Shown here: in pieces, positions 1,878 to 63,918 of the stretch
Numbering within the stretch: position 1 is the first letter of the stretch
Layout: each line of letters begins with the position of its first letter
Assembly: GCA_016284885.1 (NCBI GenBank)
Contig: JAEEPQ010000001.1
Span: forward strand, 1,570-65,569
Reading direction: 5' to 3'
DNA from: Desulfovibrio sp.
GTDB taxonomy: Bacteria > Desulfobacterota > Desulfovibrionia > Desulfovibrionales > Desulfovibrionaceae
Length of the DNA stretch: 64,000 bases
Notes under the pieces: generated by a model
Told to the model about the DNA's origin: nothing
Database searches by the model: none
Seen by the model: only the letters and a program-made list of their open reading frames with translations
Position numbers and translations under genes: made by a program

Positions 1878-2918
1878 CTACTTGGCGGGGCTTGGTTCCT
1901 CGACGATCTCCGCATCCGAGACGTCCTCGGCATCGCCAGCTGCGGGGGCGCCGTCTGCCTTGACATTGCCGCCTTCCGGAGAGGGGGGCAGGGCGGCCTG
2001 GGACCTGCCTCTTTCGATGGGCACAATCCGGCCGTCCTCCAGCTTCAGAGGCTCGCTGCCCTTGCTGGCGATGATGATGCCGGTCTTCTCCAGCACCTTG
2101 AGGCGGTAGGCATACTCCTGCTGCATCCTGTTGTGCCGGGCAATGAAGATCTGCCTGACAATGTAGCAGACGATGAGGAAAACGGTGAGGCTGCCGAGTA
2201 TCCAGGGCAGGTAGGGCAGGATGCCTCGACCCACCCTGATAAGCACGTCCATGGCGCTGTCCAGGAAGAAGAGCGCCCCGCCAAAGGCGATGAGTCCCAG
2301 CAGGACAACGACAGTCGGCGCATGCTTGACGATGGCGTAGAGCCTCTGCACGCGCTCGGGCACCTCCTCGCCGGCATCGGCTCCGCCAGCCATGCCGTCG
2401 GCCGAGGTGGCGTTCAGGGAGCGGGAGAAGTACTGCCCGGAAAGGTGGAGAATGAGCAGGAGGCCAACAGGAGAGAGAATGGCTGCGATGAGCCATCCCA
2501 CCCAGGGGAAGGTGGCCATGCGGACGCCGTCCGGCCCCATGGGCTCAGCGTGCACCACGCCGTAGAAGAAGGCCACCGCGCCGACGATGAGCTCCAGGAA
2601 GGCCACCGCGATGAGGTAGTAGACCACGATCTCCCTGTTCTGCCCATCGTACCAGTTCCGGCGCAGGGCTCTGCGGGCCTGCTCTCTGGCCTTGGAGCGG
2701 CCTTGCCCGTCTTTCGCCTGGGCCGCCTGCTTTGCATCAGTCTTGTTCACGTCGATCAACTCCAGCTTTGCCGCAGCCCTCAGAAGCCGTACGGAACTGC
2801 CCTGCCTGAGGCAATCCCTGCAGACAGGAACGGGACTGCAGTCCAAAGCTTGTTTGTATACCTTGCAAGGGGGCACTTCCGCAAGCGCAAGCACCGTCAA
2901 AATTTTCCCGTTCCGCAC
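1878..2918 (-). CDS. Multi-pass membrane protein of unknown function
   Basis: Several hydrophobic helices (IVVYYLIAVAFLELIVGAVAFFYGV, WLIAAILSPVGLLLILHL, VVVLLGLIAFGGALFFL, LPWILGSLTVFLIVCYIV) and an acidic Pro/Ala-rich tail. The true start is uncertain; the first ~55 codons may not be coding. Confidence 0.55.
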   Translation of the reverse strand: MRNGKILTVLALAEVPPCKVYKQALDCSPVPVCRDCLRQGSSVRLLRAAAKLELIDVNKTDAKQAAQAKDGQGRSKAREQARRALRRNWYDGQNREIVVYYLIAVAFLELIVGAVAFFYGVVHAEPMGPDGVRMATFPWVGWLIAAILSPVGLLLILHLSGQYFSRSLNATSADGMAGGADAGEEVPERVQRLYAIVKHAPTVVVLLGLIAFGGALFFLDSAMDVLIRVGRGILPYLPWILGSLTVFLIVCYIVRQIFIARHNRMQQEYAYRLKVLEKTGIIIASKGSEPLKLEDGRIVPIERGRSQAALPPSPEGGNVKADGAPAAGDAEDVSDAEIVEEPSPAK

Positions 2919-3047
2919 CCGTTTTGGTCCCTTCCGGCAAGTTCCTCAATGCACGCAAGCTTGCGCGATGCCAGTACTTGGCCTATTTTTCGCGCACCAA
3001 GGAACATAAGGAAACACCGGAACACCTTGATCACCAAGGAGCGCTCC

Positions 3048-4085
3048 ATGCATGCACTTGTCACAGGCGCGGCCGGCTTCATCGGCTTCCATCTCGCCAG
3101 GCTTCTGCTTAGCCAGGGCCACCGCGTCACCGGCATAGACAATCTCTGCGACTACTACAGCGTGCGCCTCAAGGAGGACCGCCTGCGCGTCCTCGAAGGC
3201 ATGGAGGGATTCTCCTTCGTTCGGGGAGATCTGGCCGACAAGGCCTGCATGGAGCTCCTCTTCGAGGAAGAGGGCTTCACCCACGTTGTCAACCTGGCTG
3301 CCCAGGCCGGCGTCAGGTACAGCCTGATCAATCCCATGGCCTACATCTCCTCCAACATCGTCGGCTTTGCCAACATTCTGGAGGGCTGCCGCAGGCACAA
3401 GGTCAGGCATCTGGTCTTCGCCTCCTCGTCCTCGGTCTACGGTCTGGACGCCGCCCAGCCCTACACGCCCCACCAGGCCGCGAACCATCCCGTCAGCCTC
3501 TACGCGGCCTCCAAGCGCAGCGACGAGCTCATGGCCCACGCCTACGCCCACCTCTACGGCATCCCCTGCACGGGCCTGCGCTTCTTCACGGTCTACGGCC
3601 CCTGGGGCAGGCCGGACATGGCGCTCAACATCTTCGCAGCGGCCATGCGCCGGGGCGAGCCCATCAAGGTCTTCAACCAGGGCCGCATGCGCCGGGACTT
3701 CACCTACATCGACGACATTGTGGAGCCCATGGCACGCCTGCTGGACATGCCGCCTCAGGCCAATCCCGGCTGGGACGCCGCGAAGGCGGACCCCGCCACC
3801 AGCTCCGCCCCCTGGCGCATCCTCAACCTCGGCCGGGGGCAGACGGTGGAGCTTGGCCGCTTCATCGAGACCCTCGAGAAAGTCATGGGCACCGTTGCCG
3901 TCAAGGAATACCTCCCCATGCAGGACGGCGACGTGCTCTCCACCTGGTCCGACACCAGCGATGCGGAAGCCCTCACGGGCTGGACGCCCCAGACCTCCCT
4001 CAAGGAGGGCATAGCCCGCTTCTACGAGTGGTTTGCCTCCTACTACGCCTCGCCAAGCCCCATCAGCAACCTTCCAAATTCCTAG
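3048..4085 (+). CDS. NAD-dependent sugar-nucleotide epimerase/dehydratase (UDP-glucuronate 4-epimerase-like, SDR family)
   Basis: MHALVTGAAGFIGFHL (GxxGxxG), YAASK (YxxxK), FFTVYGPWGRPDMAL, RDFTYIDDIV. Only the last 345 codons of track ORF 1800-4085 are used. Confidence 0.85.
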   Translation: MHALVTGAAGFIGFHLARLLLSQGHRVTGIDNLCDYYSVRLKEDRLRVLEGMEGFSFVRGDLADKACMELLFEEEGFTHVVNLAAQAGVRYSLINPMAYISSNIVGFANILEGCRRHKVRHLVFASSSSVYGLDAAQPYTPHQAANHPVSLYAASKRSDELMAHAYAHLYGIPCTGLRFFTVYGPWGRPDMALNIFAAAMRRGEPIKVFNQGRMRRDFTYIDDIVEPMARLLDMPPQANPGWDAAKADPATSSAPWRILNLGRGQTVELGRFIETLEKVMGTVAVKEYLPMQDGDVLSTWSDTSDAEALTGWTPQTSLKEGIARFYEWFASYYASPSPISNLPNS

Positions 4086-34924: not shown

Positions 34925-34937
34925 CCCGACAGGACAG

Positions 34938-34973
34938 GCGCCGCCCCTTCCGGCAACAGGGAAGGGGCGGCGC
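34938..34973. terminator. Bidirectional GC hairpin between glmS and cls
   Basis: Perfect 14-bp stem GCGCCGCCCCTTCC-ggcaacag-GGAAGGGGCGGCGC, then TCTCATTTCTG. Confidence 0.65.
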
Positions 34974-34996
34974 TCTCATTTCTGCCTCCGCGCGGG

Positions 34997-36421
34997 CTAC
35001 AGATAGGGCGAGAAGAGCCAGCAGGCTGCATTGCGCAGCTTCTGCAGGGTGCTGAAGGACTGGATCCTCTCCAGCGTCATCTCCTCGGCGTCCTTTGCCT
35101 TGCCGTCGATGTGGGCTTCCATGAGGCGAGCGAAGGAGGCGCTGAAGACTTCCGTGTTCAGCTCGAAGTTGAGCCGCAGGCTCCTCGAGTCGAGATTGGC
35201 CGAGCCTATCTGGCAGTAGTAGCCGTCGATGGCCAGCAGCTTGGTGTGGGCGAAGGGCGGCTTCTGGTGGAAGATGCGCACGCCTGCCTGGAGCAGAGTC
35301 TCCATGAGCCGCAGGCTCGCCCAGTGGACCAGCGGCATGTTGTTCTTTGCCGGGAGCACTATCCTGACGTCGATCTCCTTCTGCGCAGCGGACCGCAGGG
35401 CAGCCATGATTTCGCGCGTGGGCAGAAAGTAGGGCGTCATGATGCGCACGGACTTTTCGGCGCCCGAGATGGCTCCGGCAATGAGATCGTTGAGGGGATC
35501 CAAGCCGCCGCCCGGGCCGTCCAGCACGATGCGGCACCAGCAGGAACCGCTGGCGTCGTGGCAGATGATGGGCAGAGTCTTGTCGTAGGTGCCCGTGACG
35601 AAGCCCCAGTCCATGAGGAAGGCCCGGATCAGCTCGCCGGCGACGGGCCCCTGGCAGCGGAAGTGCATGTCCTGGACGAAAGCCTGCGGGGCGTCCTCCC
35701 GCATGACATGGTAGTCGGCGATGTTCATGCCGCCGGTGAAGCCCGTGTCGTCGCAGACGAGCACCTTGCGGTGGTTGCGCAGGTTGATGGAGAGCAGCGG
35801 CGGAAAGAGCTTGGGTGGCAGGAAGAAGGCCACCTTGACGCCTGCCTCCTTCAGCTTCTGGGCAGGCGTGGAAAGAGAGTAGGCGCGTCCCACGCCGTCG
35901 ATGATCACGCGCACGTCGCAGCCCCGGGCGTGGGCTTCCTTCAGGGCCTCAACGAAGCGGTCGGCGATGACGCCCGAGGAGAAGATGTAGGTCGAGAGGA
36001 AGACGTGGCGCTGGGCCTGGCGTATGGCGGAAAGCATGGCCGGATAGGCGGTGTTGCCGTTGACGAGGGGCGTTATGGCATTGCCTCCGGCAACGGGCTG
36101 GCCTGTGAGGTGGAGGCCTGGCTTGGCCATGCGCAGGATGCTGGCCGGAAGATTCTCAAGTTCCGACGGCCTCGGCGCGGGGTGCGCGTAGCCAGGCTCC
36201 CTTGATGCGATGGCGCGCATGAGTCTGGAGGCCCTGCTCTGCGTCCTGCCTATGCCGAAGAGGGCGTAGAGGAGGACGCCGAGCACCGGCACCATGAGGC
36301 AGATGGCGGACCAGCCGAAGGCGGATCGCGGATCGCGCTTGGTCATGAGCACATGGAAAACGGCGCCCCATGCCAGCAGATGAAAGCACAGGACGCCGAT
36401 CTGTACGGAAAGAAGGAGCAA
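34997..36421 (-). CDS. cls: Cardiolipin synthase (PLD superfamily)
   Basis: Two HKD motifs (HRKVLVCDD...GGMN and HTKLLAIDG...GSANLD) and two N-terminal TM helices. The track ORF runs to 36586 but overlaps usp. A TTG at 36421, 8 nt after the usp stop, is a plausible start but uncertain. Confidence 0.85.
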   Translation of the reverse strand: MLLLSVQIGVLCFHLLAWGAVFHVLMTKRDPRSAFGWSAICLMVPVLGVLLYALFGIGRTQSRASRLMRAIASREPGYAHPAPRPSELENLPASILRMAKPGLHLTGQPVAGGNAITPLVNGNTAYPAMLSAIRQAQRHVFLSTYIFSSGVIADRFVEALKEAHARGCDVRVIIDGVGRAYSLSTPAQKLKEAGVKVAFFLPPKLFPPLLSINLRNHRKVLVCDDTGFTGGMNIADYHVMREDAPQAFVQDMHFRCQGPVAGELIRAFLMDWGFVTGTYDKTLPIICHDASGSCWCRIVLDGPGGGLDPLNDLIAGAISGAEKSVRIMTPYFLPTREIMAALRSAAQKEIDVRIVLPAKNNMPLVHWASLRLMETLLQAGVRIFHQKPPFAHTKLLAIDGYYCQIGSANLDSRSLRLNFELNTEVFSASFARLMEAHIDGKAKDAEEMTLERIQSFSTLQKLRNAACWLFSPYL

Positions 36422-36428
36422 GGATTGC

Positions 36429-36857
36429 CTACTTGCGGACGGAGAGCAGGTCGATGTCGGTGTTCTTGAGGACGCGCTGGGTGATGGAACCGAAGACCAG
36501 CTCGGAGATGTTCTGCACGCCGTCGGTGAACATGACGATGAGGTCAGCATCCTCCTCCTGGGCAGTCTTGACGATGGTGTCGGCAATGACGCCGTTGCGC
36601 ACGAGCAGTCTGTACTTGACGTTCTTGGATTCGAGGAAGTCCTTGACCGGCTGCAGGCGGCTCTTGCCGTGCGCTTCGTCCTCTTCCTTCTGCTTCTTGC
36701 GGTCTATGCCCGCCACCAGCTGGGAGCCTTGGGCTTCAACGTGGAGCAGGAGGATTTCGCCGCCCTCGGCCAGCAGGGGCACGGCCTGGGTAGAGGAGCG
36801 GATGGCCCTCCAGGCGCCTTCACGGCCTTCGACGGGGATAAGAATCTTGTTGTACAT
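36429..36857 (-). CDS. Universal stress protein (UspA family)
   Basis: MYNKILIPVEG..., ADLIVMFTDG, GSITQRVLKNTDIDLL. Strong RBS TAAGGAGAAACCATG. Confidence 0.85.
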   Translation of the reverse strand: MYNKILIPVEGREGAWRAIRSSTQAVPLLAEGGEILLLHVEAQGSQLVAGIDRKKQKEEDEAHGKSRLQPVKDFLESKNVKYRLLVRNGVIADTIVKTAQEEDADLIVMFTDGVQNISELVFGSITQRVLKNTDIDLLSVRK

Positions 36858-36866
36858 GGTTTCTCC

Positions 36867-37166
36867 TTAGCGGTTGATCCGCAGTTCCTGGATTTTTCGC
36901 TCCACAGCGCCGCACAGCACGGGAAGCAGATCCTTGACGGCTGCGAAGTCCCTGGATCCGGCCGCCTGGCCGACCAGGAAGGCTATCTTTGCCAGCGCCC
37001 GCAGCTGCCAGGCTTTGGCGGTGCCGGAGATGGCCATGGAGGCCTCTTCGACGGCGGCGAGGTCGCCTGTGGCGAATCCTTGCCTGGCCTTGAGCGCGGC
37101 CTGGCTGAGTTCCTGTTCCAGAAGGGGGGCGTTGCCGCCTTCATCCCCGGTTAAAGTTTTTTTTTG
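36867..37166 (-). other. HPt-like coding frame (99 codons) with no start codon, in the -1 frame relative to the upstream sensor ORF
   Basis: Reads QKKTLTGDEGGNAPLLEQELSQAALKARQGFATGDLAAVEEASMAISGTAKAWQLRALAKIAFLVGQAAGSRDFAAVKDLLPVLCGAVERKIQELRINR*. It has protein-like composition. The helix pattern resembles HPt, with Met where the phospho-His sits (ASMAISGTA against AHxLKGSA). There is no ATG/GTG/TTG before the internal Met. Confidence 0.45.
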
Positions 37167-40100
37167 ACCGGCTGGCCAAAGTCCAGATCAAGGCTGAGTG
37201 AGCCGTTGTCCTGCTCCAGGGAGGCCTTGGGGGGCTGGCCCGGGGCAGGGGCTTCGCCGAAGAGGTCGGGAACGGCCTCTTCAGGCTCCGCTGGGCTCGG
37301 CGCGGCCGGGGGAAGCTTCCTTCCCAGCGCCTGCAGGGCTTCGCAGACGGTGCCGGCAAGGGCCTCCTCGTCCAGCGGCAGGGTCAGCGCGTGGGTGAAT
37401 CCGGCCTTGGCCAGTTCGTGCCACGTGCTTTCGTCCTGCGTGACGGCCAGAATGGTGGGCAGAGGCAGGCCACGGAGCCTGCATGCATTCTTGACGGCAT
37501 TCAGGGTGCCTGCAAGCTTGGGATCCGCGGAGCGTCCCTGCAGGATGAGCATGTCTGCCGGGCTGGTTTCATGCAGGTTGTAGAGGTCGCTGGCCGCCCT
37601 GGCAGTCCGCGCCTGGCATCCTAAACGGGAGAGGATGTTCTCGATTTGTACAGCAATGTTCGGATTGTCGGCAAGAAGTATTGTCTTGAGTCCATGGCTC
37701 TTGGCTTGGCCTGAGGGTCTGGCTTCAGGCGCCTGGGCAGGCTCCCTCGCCGGGGGCTGGGAGGCGTGGGGGGCCGGGTGAGGGCTGGCCTGCTGAACAG
37801 GCTGCTGGCCTGGAGCGGGCCTAGCCTGAGGCGCCTGAGACTGAGCTGCCGGGTCCGGCTGGCTGGGAGCGGGCTGGACCGCTTGGGCGGAAGGCATCGG
37901 CTCTGCGGGTCCGGCTGCCTGGCCTGTCTGGGCTGGCTGGTCTTGGGCGCTGTCGAGGCCCATGGTGAAGGTGACGCTGGTCTCGTCCTGCCGGCATTCC
38001 ATGCCGAGGCAGCCGCCTGCGGCGATGGCAAGCTCCCGTGCCTGCATGAGGGAGAGGGGATCGGGGATGCCGGCGCCCTTGCCGGAGGCAGCAATGGAGA
38101 AGAGGAGTTCGCCGGCATCGGAAGAGCCTTGCATGTGCTTGGCAGAACACCTCAGGCATCCTTTCTGCATGGCGCTGGCCGTGGTTTTGAGCAGGCTCTG
38201 GAGCACGCGCTCCAGCTCCCTGCCGTAGCCGGTGAAGTGCTGGCCGAGCGTGGGGGACATGTACCAGGAAAGCCCCACGCCGTTTCTGGCGCAGATTTCG
38301 GCAGCCGCGTCGTGGGCTTGCTGGAGCAGCTTCTGCAGTTCGAAGTCCTGCCTCGTGCGGTCGCAGGCCTTGGCTGCGCTGGCCTTGCCGTCCTTGACGA
38401 TGCCGGCAATGGCGCCTGCCGAGGAGAGGATGTCGTTGACGCGCTCCTTGGAGCTCGAGGGCAGGTTTTCAGAGGCTAGCGCCGAGGCGCTTTCCATGAT
38501 GTCCTTAACCGGCGCCTCGAGATAGGGGGCGTAGTGGGCCTTGGGATCATCCTTGGGATCAAGGGAGAGTTCTGCCGGCGCCTCGGGGGCGCTCGTTGCC
38601 TGGGCGCTCTGGAAAGGCTGCGCGGCTGCCGGCGCTGCCGGTGCGGTCGGCGCAGGCGGGATAGCGCCTTCCAGATTGAGGTCGAGGCTGCCGGCCGCTT
38701 GGCCTGTCTGGGCCGTCATGGCCGCCTGGCTGTCGAGGCTCAGGAATTCGTCTTTGGAAACGGTGGCTTGCCGTCGGGGCGCCTGGTCGAGGTTCGGCAT
38801 TGCGTCCCGGCCCCTTCGTCCTGCGCTTTCAAGCGGGGAGGGCTGGGGAAGGCCCATGACGACGAGGGCGCCGAGTGCCGTGCCCCAGAGCGGAAGGGCT
38901 GCCAGGAACTGGGGAGGATAGCCCGACTTCATGCCCACGATGCCGGCGCACACGGCAGCCGGCGGAATGATGGAGCCGAGCAGGAGCCTGAAGGAGCCGG
39001 CAAGCCCGCAGAGGCAGGCGGCCAGCGTGGTCGGAATGAAGAGGGCAAGGCCCAGGGGCCAGTATTCGGCGTAGCGGGAAACCCAGTGCATGTTGGGCAC
39101 GAGGGGCAGGAGCACCAGCGCCAGTCCCGGCAGGGAGAGGAGCAGGTACTGCCAGTCGAAGAGGCGCGAATTCTCGGCGCAGCGCATGAGCGTGCGCGCG
39201 GCCATGGGATAGAAGAAGAGAGCCAGTCCCGGCGCCACTAGGGCGCAGACGGTCTGCCAGTCCATGGGGCCGTTGACGGTGCGCACGCCAAGCCAGGCCT
39301 GGGCCAGGGCGCAGACGAGGTAGAGGAAGGCCCAGACGCGCCACTGCCCCTGCTCGCTTAAGGCGCGCAGCAGGCAGATGACGAGGACCACGGCCAGAAT
39401 GAGCATGGCGCCGGGCCGGTAGTAGCCTTCGAACGAGGTTGCGGCGTCCTGCGGGGTGCGCATCATAGGGGCGAACCAGACGCTCGGCATGCTGTCCGTG
39501 CGCAGGTAGCAGACGAGGGGGGTGGAGCCGGCTTCGGGCAGGAGCATGACGCCGCGCTTGCCGGGCAGGCTTTCCTTCCATTCGGCTGTTCCGTCGGCGC
39601 TGGGCAGGGGAGTGTAGAGCACGGCCCTGTCGTGGATGGCGTCGCCAAGGTCAAGCAGGTAGGTCTTGGGCTGTGCGCCCTCGGGCAGCTCCTGCAGGAT
39701 GAAGCGGAACCACACGGGGCCGGAGGTCGCGCCGGCAAGGCCCATCTGGCTCTTCTGCTGCAGATAGGGCTTGAAGGTGAGCTGGCCCGTGTCCTTGCCC
39801 AGATCCTCGAGCGTGGGCGCAGGCTGGGCCTGCTTGCCGGGCTGGCCCTGGACTGGCGTCTGGAGCTGCGGCTTGGGCCTGTCCACCATGGCGGCCTTGG
39901 CGATGTCCAGCCTTCCTTCGCTATCTGGCAGGATGAAGAGGTAAGGCGCGAGGTTCAGGTTCTCTTCCTTGAGCGTGCTCGGCACCATGTTCTGCAGGAA
40001 GGGATTGGCACGCGGCATGCCGGGATGGGCTGAAGCAGACTGGGCAAGCGAAGCAGGCTGGCCCGGGAGCTGGGGCGCGCCGTGGCGCTGTGCGCCTCGC

Positions 40101-40270
40101 CTGTCAGCATTGAGATCGATGAGGGGTGCAGGCTTCTGTTCGGCCTTGGCCGTCGGAGCGGGCTGGGCTGGAGGCGCCTTGGGCGCGGCCAGCGGGGCCT
40201 GCGCCGTCCATGCTAGAAGGAGAAAGGCGAGGAGGCTGAGGCTTGTACAGAGGAATTTGAGAGAGCGCAT
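37151..40270 (-). CDS. 7TM-DISM-type sensor, hybrid histidine-kinase-like (periplasmic DISMED2-like domain, 7TM, DHp/HATPase-like, REC-like)
   Basis: Signal peptide MRSLKFLCTSLSLLAFLLLAWTAQA. Periplasmic segment with WFRFILQ...VLYTP...LVCYLR. About 7 hydrophobic helices. A kinase-core-like region and a C-terminal receiver-like fold. Long Pro/Ala/Gln linkers. Confidence 0.75.
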   Translation of the reverse strand: MRSLKFLCTSLSLLAFLLLAWTAQAPLAAPKAPPAQPAPTAKAEQKPAPLIDLNADRRGAQRHGAPQLPGQPASLAQSASAHPGMPRANPFLQNMVPSTLKEENLNLAPYLFILPDSEGRLDIAKAAMVDRPKPQLQTPVQGQPGKQAQPAPTLEDLGKDTGQLTFKPYLQQKSQMGLAGATSGPVWFRFILQELPEGAQPKTYLLDLGDAIHDRAVLYTPLPSADGTAEWKESLPGKRGVMLLPEAGSTPLVCYLRTDSMPSVWFAPMMRTPQDAATSFEGYYRPGAMLILAVVLVICLLRALSEQGQWRVWAFLYLVCALAQAWLGVRTVNGPMDWQTVCALVAPGLALFFYPMAARTLMRCAENSRLFDWQYLLLSLPGLALVLLPLVPNMHWVSRYAEYWPLGLALFIPTTLAACLCGLAGSFRLLLGSIIPPAAVCAGIVGMKSGYPPQFLAALPLWGTALGALVVMGLPQPSPLESAGRRGRDAMPNLDQAPRRQATVSKDEFLSLDSQAAMTAQTGQAAGSLDLNLEGAIPPAPTAPAAPAAAQPFQSAQATSAPEAPAELSLDPKDDPKAHYAPYLEAPVKDIMESASALASENLPSSSKERVNDILSSAGAIAGIVKDGKASAAKACDRTRQDFELQKLLQQAHDAAAEICARNGVGLSWYMSPTLGQHFTGYGRELERVLQSLLKTTASAMQKGCLRCSAKHMQGSSDAGELLFSIAASGKGAGIPDPLSLMQARELAIAAGGCLGMECRQDETSVTFTMGLDSAQDQPAQTGQAAGPAEPMPSAQAVQPAPSQPDPAAQSQAPQARPAPGQQPVQQASPHPAPHASQPPAREPAQAPEARPSGQAKSHGLKTILLADNPNIAVQIENILSRLGCQARTARAASDLYNLHETSPADMLILQGRSADPKLAGTLNAVKNACRLRGLPLPTILAVTQDESTWHELAKAGFTHALTLPLDEEALAGTVCEALQALGRKLPPAAPSPAEPEEAVPDLFGEAPAPGQPPKASLEQDNGSLSLDLDFGQPVKKKL
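37157..37165 (-). repeat. A9 homopolymer (T9 on the + strand), one codon before the sensor stop codon
   Basis: Minus strand: GTC AAA AAA AAA CTT TAA, anchored on the track ORF end at 37151. Confidence 0.9.
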
Positions 40271-45871: not shown

Positions 45872-46288
45872 CTAGAGCTTCTGGCGGTTCTGCTTCTGGT
45901 ACTTGGAGGGGCACTTGGTCATCAGCGTCTTGGCGCTGAAGGATCCGTCCTTTTCCATGCCGCCCTCGACGATGACCTCGGCGCCTTCTTTGAAGGTGTC
46001 GGGCACTGTGCCGCGGTAGCTCACCGCAACGGTGACGGCCTTGTCGTCCTTGTCCTCAAGCAGGAAGCGCAGGTCGCCTGCGCCGTCGGGGCGGGCAAGC
46101 CCGTGGGGGGCAACGGTGCCGAAGAGCCTGGCGCTGGCCAGCTTGGCGGGATCCTGGGCCTTGGCCTCGGCGACGTTGAGGAAGTAGACGCTGTTTTCGG
46201 AAAGGCCCGAAAACAGGAGCCAGGCGAGGCCTCCGGCAAAGAGGAGGGCCGCCGCGAGGTAGATGGAGGTGTTTTTTTTCTGCGCCAT
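45872..46288 (-). CDS. ccmE: Heme chaperone CcmE, Cys-variant (CxxxY)
   Basis: N-terminal anchor, OB-fold region LFGTV...FLLED, C-terminal TKCPSKY in place of the usual HxxxY heme-binding motif. Confidence 0.9.
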   Translation of the reverse strand: MAQKKNTSIYLAAALLFAGGLAWLLFSGLSENSVYFLNVAEAKAQDPAKLASARLFGTVAPHGLARPDGAGDLRFLLEDKDDKAVTVAVSYRGTVPDTFKEGAEVIVEGGMEKDGSFSAKTLMTKCPSKYQKQNRQKL

Positions 46289-46557
46289 GGGGAGACTCGC
46301 TTGGGTTGGAAGGAATGTGCGCAGGGCTAAGCCTATGGATAGTACGCGCCTTGCGTCTGCATGACAAGATAGGAATGATTCTTGATATGATAGATGGGCT
46401 GGTTTGTCCACCCTCCCGGAAGACGGAAGCTCGCTGAATGCATTTTTTTGTATTTGCAGGGAAAAGAAAGGACAAGCTCCTTCAATTGAGAGAAACTGAT
46501 TGAGTTTTTCTTTACAGGTGAGTGACTTCGACTCTACTCTTTTTTTCACAAGCTCAA

Positions 46558-46573
46558 TGTGACATATTTCACA
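46558..46573. promoter_or_regulatory. TGTGA-N6-TCACA palindrome (candidate CRP/FNR-family or Rex operator)
   Basis: aTGTGACATATTTCACAa in the AT-rich ccmE/dhcA intergenic region, ~125 nt upstream of the dhcA start. An additional TCACA half-site lies 7 nt upstream. Confidence 0.5.
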
Positions 46574-46698
46574 ATAACAAAAAAACTCCGAGTCGCAAAA
46601 ATATAGGTAGCTGACGCAGATTTTTCTTCCTAAAGGCCCCAAGTTTATGCTAAGCGTCAAAGAAGGATGTATCGTTGTGCCGAAAAACGAAGCACAGC

Positions 46699-63871: not shown

Positions 63872-63918
63872 GAGCGGAGGCGGAGGGAGAATCCTTCCGC
63901 TTCCGCTCCGTTTTTTTT
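63872..63918 (+). terminator. Rho-independent terminator
   Basis: GAGCGGAGGCGGA-gggagaatcct-TCCGCTTCCGCTC (one mismatch), then CG and T8. Confidence 0.75.

Follow-up and report, generated by a model that had tools for sequence, protein, structure and literature searches.

A conserved run of nine adenines as a probable programmed slippage site ahead of an optional pseudo-HPt domain in a Desulfovibrio sensor gene

We analysed a stretch of 64,000 nucleotides (nt) from Desulfovibrio sp. (assembly GCA_016284885.1, contig JAEEPQ010000001.1, positions 1,570 to 65,569; "the window" means this whole stretch, and its first letter is position 1), in which a sensor gene of the minus strand ends in a run of nine adenines. 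The zero frame of this gene (37151-40270, minus strand) is an open reading frame (ORF) for a short isoform of 1039 amino acids (aa) ending ...GQPVKKKL. Its 3' end reads ...GGC CAG CCG GTC AAA AAA AAA CTT TAA, with the stop codon TAA at 37151-37153 and the A9 run, which is a T9 run on the plus strand, at 37157-37165. The run supplies the Lys codons AAA AAA AAA, has the zero-frame phase A_AAA_AAA and is the slippage site that we propose. Beyond it, the -1 frame encodes a tail of 96 codons (36870-37157, minus strand; TLTGDEGG...RKIQELRINR): the first ten residues or so continue the linker that precedes the run, and the remainder looks like the four-helix bundle of a histidine-phosphotransfer (HPt) domain devoid of histidine. 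Joined in the -1 frame, body and tail make up a predicted long isoform of 1135 aa. The -1 frame is closed upstream by a TGA (37188-37190) and ends at a TAA (36867-36869); its junction codon is ACT (codon 0), and beyond this junction no canonical start occurs before the ATG of codon 40 (Met41). An earlier sequence-only reading of this DNA had described the same sensor ORF ending at the run, the same stops, including that of the -1 frame at the ribosome-binding site of the next gene, usp, and the same -1-frame translation, which we reproduced exactly. One point of it stands in part: the gap between the sensor stop and usp was said to hold a single ORF with an ATG start. This third-frame ORF is present (36983-37144, minus strand, 53 aa), but it is not alone, as a second one of 56 aa (36867-37037, minus strand; P0007) starts from the ATG of the internal Met of the -1 frame.

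The A9 run is the only homopolymer of at least 9 nt in the window, the G+C content of which is 63.7%. Moreover, of the Lys codons counted over 30 long ORFs in this DNA, just 10% are AAA (74 AAA against 650 AAG), which gives three AAA in a row a probability of about 0.001. Since the run is the sole homopolymer of this length and since AAA is so rare among Lys codons, its presence at this place reflects more than chance.

We searched a protein database with a fused C-terminal query made of the receiver-like domain of the sensor, the linker and the tail. One protein, P0001, is 77% identical to this query and likewise ends ...GQPVKKKL. Another, P0002, is 39% identical to the query over 99% of it, which means that in P0002 the tail is in frame. 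The contigs of these two proteins confirm both states. In L001, the contig of P0001, the A9 run, the zero-frame stop and the -1 tail are all as in the window, and usp and a gene of the phospholipase D (PLD) family come next; L002, the contig of P0002, has no A-run, carries sensor and tail in a single ORF and continues with usp. Scans of genome and metagenome collections brought four more contigs with the A9 run and the -1 tail, namely L003 (a metagenome-assembled genome, MAG, of Desulfovibrionaceae), L006, L007 and L008, and L021 added a fifth lineage. We count as the five A9 lineages the window species, L001 together with L008, L003 together with L007, L006, and L021; they are separated by up to 51 differences in the 291 nucleotides of the tail and by a synonymous divergence (dS) of up to 0.46. 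Within the window species the run has exactly nine adenines in 9/9 other assemblies read (L022-L030), and over the five lineages it does so in 16 independent sequences, six of them contigs of the four other lineages. No copy with A8 or A10 was seen among these 16 sequences, nor in DNA-based scans that are independent of ORF calls. Several studies and assemblers stand behind these sequences, which include contigs named in MEGAHIT k87/k141 style, others named in NODE style, and NCBI MAGs. A homopolymer error in the assembly, which the sequence-only reading had listed among its explanations, is thereby effectively excluded, and its suggestion of a phase-variable tail finds no support, the length of the run being equal in all the assemblies read. 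The leftover 56-aa ORF P0007 was counted on 112 contigs and is listed in 154 blocks of the collection.

More distant relatives have the HPt-like tail fused in frame: L002, L004 (uncultured Desulfovibrio sp. UMGS847), L009-L015 and L018, with the representatives P0013, P0014, P0015, P0017 and P0018. At the site homologous to the run, these in-frame outgroups read ACG AAA AAA GCT (L004) or GCA AAG AAA GCC. As the outgroups already have Lys-Lys there, a Lys-Lys spot in the linker would have grown into the A9 run. The comparison points to a single ORF, with the receiver-like domain and the tail in frame, as the ancestral state.

Some sequences depart from these two arrangements. In L020 (positions 2600-3075; the MAG Desulfovibrio sp. 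GCA_017613395.1), a distant homolog, body and tail are in the same frame but parted by an in-frame TAG (CGC AAT TAG GAC), with usp next after the tail. The tail may have become optional here in a second, independent manner, by readthrough or as a split gene, or else the TAG may be an error of a single assembly; a search for a second copy of this arrangement returned only L020's own protein. We had considered L016 and L017 as further truncated relatives, L016 even having an A7 run at the matching position, and dropped them, their 3' parts being low-quality poly-C/G or chimeric. The predicted proteins P0003 and P0005 are chimeric as well: they join exact fragments of the locus to unrelated sequence and probably stem from mis-assembled contigs.

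The substitutions in the tail were then considered in all three frames. In the -1 frame, the ten pairs of lineages (Nei-Gojobori method) have dS of 0.04-0.46 and a ratio of nonsynonymous to synonymous divergence (dN/dS) of 0.17-0.48, against more than 1.3 in the other two frames of the tail region. Fisher tests on three lineage pairs gave p = 3e-7 (window and L001), 3e-5 and 0.009, and neither indels nor stops occur over the 288 nt in any lineage. This contradicts the decaying tail which the sequence-only reading had also envisaged. The constraint extends upstream of Met41, codons 9-40 of the tail having dN/dS of 0.17-0.31. Closer still to the run, the Thr codon two codons past the junction is ACC, ACT, ACG or ACA according to the lineage, a change that is synonymous in the -1 frame only. 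These substitution patterns argue that the tail is translated, and that its translation comes from upstream of its only ATG. Met41 itself is replaced by Leu in L001 and by Lys in L021, and no ATG, GTG or TTG is common to the lineages within the portion of the frame able to encode the tail domain. Hence independent initiation of the tail is unlikely.

The run lies in an invariant block of 31 nt (37150-37180, minus strand; TTTGGCCAGCCGGTC-A9-CTTTAAC) which holds the A9 run, the zero-frame stop and a possible hairpin. This is the longest invariant stretch in the alignment of the five lineages, 74% of whose columns are invariant overall, and it is flanked by an indel-rich linker upstream and by variable codons downstream. 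An island of 31 invariant nucleotides inside an indel-rich linker, added to the row of rare AAA codons (probability about 0.001), argues that the A9 run itself is under selection.

What does the tail encode? An AlphaFold2 model built on an alignment of 8 sequences is a four-helix bundle, with a predicted local distance difference test score (pLDDT) of 89.9 and a predicted template-modelling score (pTM) of 0.80. When this model was compared with the PDB by Foldseek, the HPt domain of RcsD (YojN) came first, then ZmHP2, HptB and a Shewanella HPt domain (1sr2, 1wn0, 7c1i and 3myf being the top matches, with template-modelling scores of 0.55-0.78 normalised to the query). The E-values are poor, all of them at least 0.085, because generic four-helix bundles match too. 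No direct match to the Pfam family Hpt (PF01627), to which the sequence-only reading had pointed, was found at E<=10 for the window tail or five relatives, and NCBIfam likewise gave no HPt match. However, a distant member of the family, P0102, passes the Pfam Hpt model with 33.4 bits (cut-off 24.6), and hhalign aligns the tail alignment with P0102 at 98.2% probability (E 4e-14). Taken together, the model and the profile comparison indicate that the tail is a divergent HPt homolog by fold and ancestry, its link to the Hpt profile being transitive through P0102. There is not a single histidine in the 96 aa. The position expected for the phospho-histidine (HxxKG, second helix), which we placed by the known spacing of the motif and without structural superposition, is occupied by Met in the window, by Leu in L001, by Lys in P0002 and P0004, and by Ser in L004. 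Deprived of any histidine, the tail cannot be a working phosphotransfer domain, so that of the HPt-like domain first proposed the fold and the ancestry are upheld and the phosphotransfer function is not.

A profile search of PDB sequences with the tail gave no HPt match, its only matches being TAL effectors. The motif AVKDLLPVLCGA at about residues 70-84 of the tail (36906-36950, minus strand) resembles the LLPVLCQA core of TAL-effector repeats, and the summed E-value against TAL-effector structures is about 1e-9. We judged this to be a coincidence and rejected the relation as spurious: a short LLPVLC-like motif is summed over 11 repeats, at about 3 bits each.

The body of the sensor begins with a signal or transmembrane segment, a weak match to 7TMR-DISMED2 (Pfam E 0.0017) and a region of multiple transmembrane segments, after which comes a degenerate kinase-like region with a weak match to the NCBIfam RcsD model (E 1.9e-4, aa 584-733). 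Pfam finds neither HisKA nor HATPase_c in the window sensor, and no kinase is among its PDB sequence matches; searching the PDB by phmmer with the kinase-like region returned only noise (fimbrial subunits, antibody chains). A receiver-like domain follows (37316-37687, minus strand, about aa 862-985), for which Pfam Response_reg gives E 0.29 and 11.8 bits (cut-off 30.2) over aa 868-972. The AlphaFold2 model of the corresponding domain of the in-frame homolog P0002 has the (beta-alpha)5 topology, and Foldseek found 218 PDB matches for it at E<=1e-3, the best listed being receiver domains, headed by GacS D1. A Gln, invariant in the alignment, is found where beta3 ends (MLILQG), and a Leu in LTLPL; from general knowledge of receiver domains we take these to be the positions of the phospho-acceptor Asp and of the conserved Lys, respectively. 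Between the receiver-like domain and the tail runs a linker of about 75 residues, which is disordered in the P0002 model. Since the tail lacks histidine, the receiver-like domain lacks the acceptor Asp and the Lys, and the kinase region is degenerate, we conclude that the window sensor is a phosphorylation-dead descendant of an unorthodox hybrid kinase, and that the tail is a pseudo-HPt domain on a pseudo-phosphorelay sensor. The hybrid of histidine kinase and receiver which had been read from the sequence is likewise degenerate, being matched only weakly by the RcsD and receiver models.

An exhaustive phmmer search with P0002 gathered 106 representatives at 50% identity, most of them of 800-1700 aa with the receiver-like part and the tail, and the five representatives that we inspected are single ORFs. 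Some distant members have the full series 7TMR-DISMED2, 7TM, HATPase_c, Response_reg and Hpt. One can notice that phosphorelay chemistry seems lost in the A9 clade, while matches to HATPase_c, the receiver and Hpt are kept in distant relatives. This highlights a broad uncharacterised family of 7TMR-DISM sensors with receiver and HPt modules from which the phospho-sites have been lost.

The comparative evidence favours one of the readings proposed at the outset, programmed recoding into a short and an HPt-extended isoform, and we hold it to be probable that the A9 run is a selected, programmed slippage site which yields a tail-less and a tail-bearing form of the sensor. Standard decoding would give the sensor of 1039 aa, stopping one codon past the run, and in some expression events the frame would pass to -1 at the A9 run, giving the protein of 1135 aa with the ancestral pseudo-HPt domain. 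This may happen by two routes. RNA polymerase may slip on the T9 template and add one A or omit two, which we deem the more likely route, or the ribosome may slip by -1 on A_AAA_AAA. Both routes would give the same protein, ...VKKKTLTGDE..., with the junction peptide VKKKTLTGDEGG (also given as ...DFGQPVKKKTLTGDEGGNAPLLEQELSQAALK). The third frame, which would be reached from transcripts with A8 or A11, closes within 3-5 codons, so that the products of such transcripts would essentially equal the short protein and be harmless. As the site falls in the disordered stretch that links the receiver-like domain to the tail, both isoforms should fold. The locus presents the features by which Baranov et al. 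(2005, PMC1088944) recognise slippage sites: an A or T run of at least 9 nt in coding sequence with a slipped product that is longer (here by 96 aa), and the same ORF organisation and run shared by no fewer than two homologs that are not identical (here by five lineages). By a test of the same type, single-ORF proteins elsewhere are homologs of the extended product, and purifying selection acts on the new frame. That slippage occurs in these bacteria, its rate, the machine that slips and the use of both isoforms are matters of inference.

The heptamer X_XXY_YYZ of -1 ribosomal frameshifting is matched in the zero-frame phase (GTC AAA AAA AAA CTT), and no Shine-Dalgarno-like element was seen upstream of the run in the window sequence. 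RNAalifold proposes a hairpin UUUGGCC-AGCC-GGUCAAA (37163-37180, minus strand), the 3' arm of which takes in the first three A's of the run; all its pairs are invariant, and hence it offers no evidence of covariation. In an insertion sequence of Roseiflexus (IS630), a hairpin of the nascent RNA beside the slippage motif promotes realignment, there by deletion. Both cases have a hairpin beside a slippage motif, but the precedent favours deletions whereas an insertion is needed here, and we leave the resemblance as an unexplained coincidence. Downstream, a possible stem-loop GGGG..GGCG-NNAA-CGCC..CCCC (37124-37148, minus strand) begins 8 nt past the run and is a weak candidate for a -1 stimulator. 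As the consensus fold has no covarying pairs and the single-sequence fold is ordinary, we claim no stimulator. The run being uninterrupted and no frameshift stimulator having comparative support, transcriptional slippage is favoured.

Several observations weigh against programmed slippage. RNAalifold finds 0 compensatory pairs in the stem-loop, some pairs of which are broken in some lineages, and single-sequence folding around the site is unremarkable (z = -0.71). Purifying selection on the tail is evidence of its translation and is silent on the route. The five A9 lineages form one clade, which means a single evolutionary event kept over moderate divergence and no repeated invention. The sensor of the window itself seems to be absent from the protein database, so that fused A10 variants of the window species might be under-sampled. 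Finally, codon 12 of the tail is CTG in four lineages and TTG in L021, and could in principle start an independent protein of 84 aa.

This last point leads to the rival which we consider the most serious, although an unlikely one: after an ancestral frameshift the gene would have been split, the tail being made as a separate protein of about 84 aa acting in trans, from the non-canonical or near-cognate codon 12 or by termination and reinitiation after the sensor stop, and the A9 run being a mere scar of the mutation. Free-standing HPt proteins are common in two-component signalling. A CTG or TTG is present at codon 12 throughout the five lineages, gene callers do report small ORFs here (P0004 from a TTG in L021, P0007 from Met41), and the tail of L020, behind its in-frame TAG, has ATGs of its own. 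But no canonical start is conserved and codon 12 has no Shine-Dalgarno sequence at a usable distance, the nearest AAGG ending about 17 nt upstream. A split gene also leaves unexplained why three rare AAA codons and 31 nt are invariant and why the Thr codon after the junction changes only synonymously.

Two further rivals concern the DNA itself. Homopolymer tracts of such length are classic contingency loci in other bacteria, and slipped-strand mispairing could switch the tail off (A9) and on (A10 or A7), in which case the assemblies give the majority state; the selection on the tail would be expected if the variants in the on state matter. A switching locus should nevertheless vary in its majority length, and the 16 independent sequences, drawn from many samples and at least five lineages, all have exactly A9, while the scans made on DNA, independently of ORF calls, brought no copy of A10 or A8. 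We therefore give this phase variation very little credence. Least probable of all, to the point of being nearly negligible, is an artefact, the true run being A10 and the gene intact, or a dead fragment of a pseudogene still on its way to decay. Some sequencing platforms make errors at homopolymers, and the divergence within the clade is moderate (dS at most 0.46); against this, different assemblers and studies agree on A9, dN/dS lies well under 1 (lowest p 3e-7), and the 288 nt are free of indels and stops in every lineage.

Slippage at the A9 run would have well-known precedents. In vivo, slippage is efficient on runs of 9 A or T (PMC5009743); the dnaX gene of Thermus makes use of an A9 run, and mxiE of U's in a row in the mRNA (PMC1088944). 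The closest parallel is the transcriptional frameshifting of tssM1 in Citrobacter rodentium (and tssM3 in Yersinia pseudotuberculosis), where the frame shifts 20-25% of the time at an A11 run just ahead of a premature stop and the two isoforms are both required, as established by mass spectrometry of cDNA and western blots (Gueguen et al. 2014, PMC4256274). There as here, the gene is chromosomal and non-mobile, its product is a large membrane protein, a poly-A run stands a few bases ahead of a premature stop, the C-terminal domain is in another frame, homologs elsewhere are single ORFs, and slippage restores, or here would restore, the full length, so that two length variants result. The differences are that the run is A11 there and A9 here, that the shift was measured there whereas here it is predicted from sequence comparison, that tssM1 encodes a component of the type VI secretion system in Enterobacteria and our gene a 7TMR-DISM sensor in Desulfovibrio, and that our site is conserved over five diverged lineages. 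The dnaX gene of Thermus thermophilus resembles our gene by its nine A's inside coding sequence; there, and in Shigella mxiE, mxiA, spa13 and spa33 (PMC1088944, PMC4256274), mRNAs made by the polymerase with variable run length give two proteins. The slipped product is longer in mxiE, as proposed here, but shorter in dnaX. These genes encode a clamp-loader subunit and components and a regulator of type III secretion, no sensor being among them, and their slippage is experimentally proven.

The other class of precedents, the -1 frameshifting on A_AAA_AAG/A of E. coli dnaX and of the IS3 and IS1 transposases (PMC5009743), shares with our site the in-phase Lys-Lys heptamer, the C-terminally extended fusion and a zero-frame stop just downstream. 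The classic -1 sites have an upstream Shine-Dalgarno-like element and/or a strong stem-loop or pseudoknot, whereas here there is no such element and the hairpins are without covariation. It is expected that transcriptional slippage on the uninterrupted A9 contributes to, or dominates over, a ribosomal shift. As for the proteins, the HPt domains of unorthodox kinases and of RcsD (PF01627; 1sr2, 7c1i, 3myf) are likewise C-terminal four-helix bundles preceded by a receiver fold and by a long linker, the HPt domain of RcsD being the best structural match, and RcsD also has a body with a degenerate kinase-like region. Phosphotransfer of the kind carried out by ArcB, BvgS, GacS and RcsD is impossible here, the tail having no histidine and the receiver no acceptor Asp. 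In the literature on recoding in Desulfovibrio or in histidine kinases we found nothing relevant.

Downstream of the tail is usp (36429-36857, minus strand), which encodes a universal stress protein of 142 aa (Pfam Usp E 1.1e-20). The stop TAA of the tail frame (36867-36869) overlaps its Shine-Dalgarno sequence (TAAGGAG; AAGGAG at 36863-36868). A block of 29 nt covering the end of the tail and the ribosome-binding site of usp is invariant in the five lineages, and the in-frame outgroup L002 has the same layout. Next comes the gene of the PLD family (34997-36421, minus strand; 474 aa, cardiolipin-synthase-like, with PLDc_N and PLDc_2 in homologous contigs), the last of the apparent operon, after which a terminator scan located a strong hairpin terminator (34937-34974); the scan found no terminator-like site among the sensor, the tail, usp and the PLD-family gene. 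Thus usp is probably co-transcribed with the sensor and translationally coupled to the tail frame. With the tail stop placed within the Shine-Dalgarno sequence of usp, termination beside the usp start would be confined to ribosomes in the shifted frame, and the translation of usp would be coupled to the frame shift by ribosomes ending there. The order sensor, usp, PLD-family gene is conserved in the window (34997-36857), L001, L019, L020 and L022-L030, and synteny of the sensor with usp and/or the PLD-family gene recurs in distant relatives, which hints at a role of the sensor in membrane or envelope stress. More speculatively, the run may be a tuned isoform switch: slippage would set the proportion of tail-less and tail-bearing forms of a phosphorylation-dead sensor, whether constant or varying with conditions, mixed dimers or competition would determine the output, and the same event would gate the translation of usp. 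We put this forward tentatively, as a possibility well short of an expectation.

If such an isoform switch is real, it would be the first case in the two-component superfamily of a domain architecture controlled by recoding. Programmed slippage at the A9 run would in itself show how a gene can make a whole domain optional with no second gene being needed. Among the ordinary chromosomal genes of bacteria, outside insertion sequences and phages, conserved sites of recoding are few (dnaX, prfB, copA, mxiE/spa, tssM); the A9 locus would add to the known recoded genes one for signalling, from Desulfovibrio of the gut or rumen, and its comparative support is unusually clean. Annotation pipelines systematically split this gene into a truncated sensor and the 56-aa hypothetical protein P0007, so that the correct product would be missing from databases.

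Two shorter homopolymers of the window are worth a mention. At 63880-63918 a GC-rich hairpin followed by T8 on the plus strand looks like an ordinary intrinsic terminator. The second-longest coding homopolymer is an A8 run (46272-46279, T8 on the plus strand), which forms codons 4-6 (CAG AAA AAA AAC) of a minus-strand gene starting ATGGCGCAG, with its start near 46289; it adjoins an AT-rich intergenic region (46300-46650) containing several A/T7 runs.

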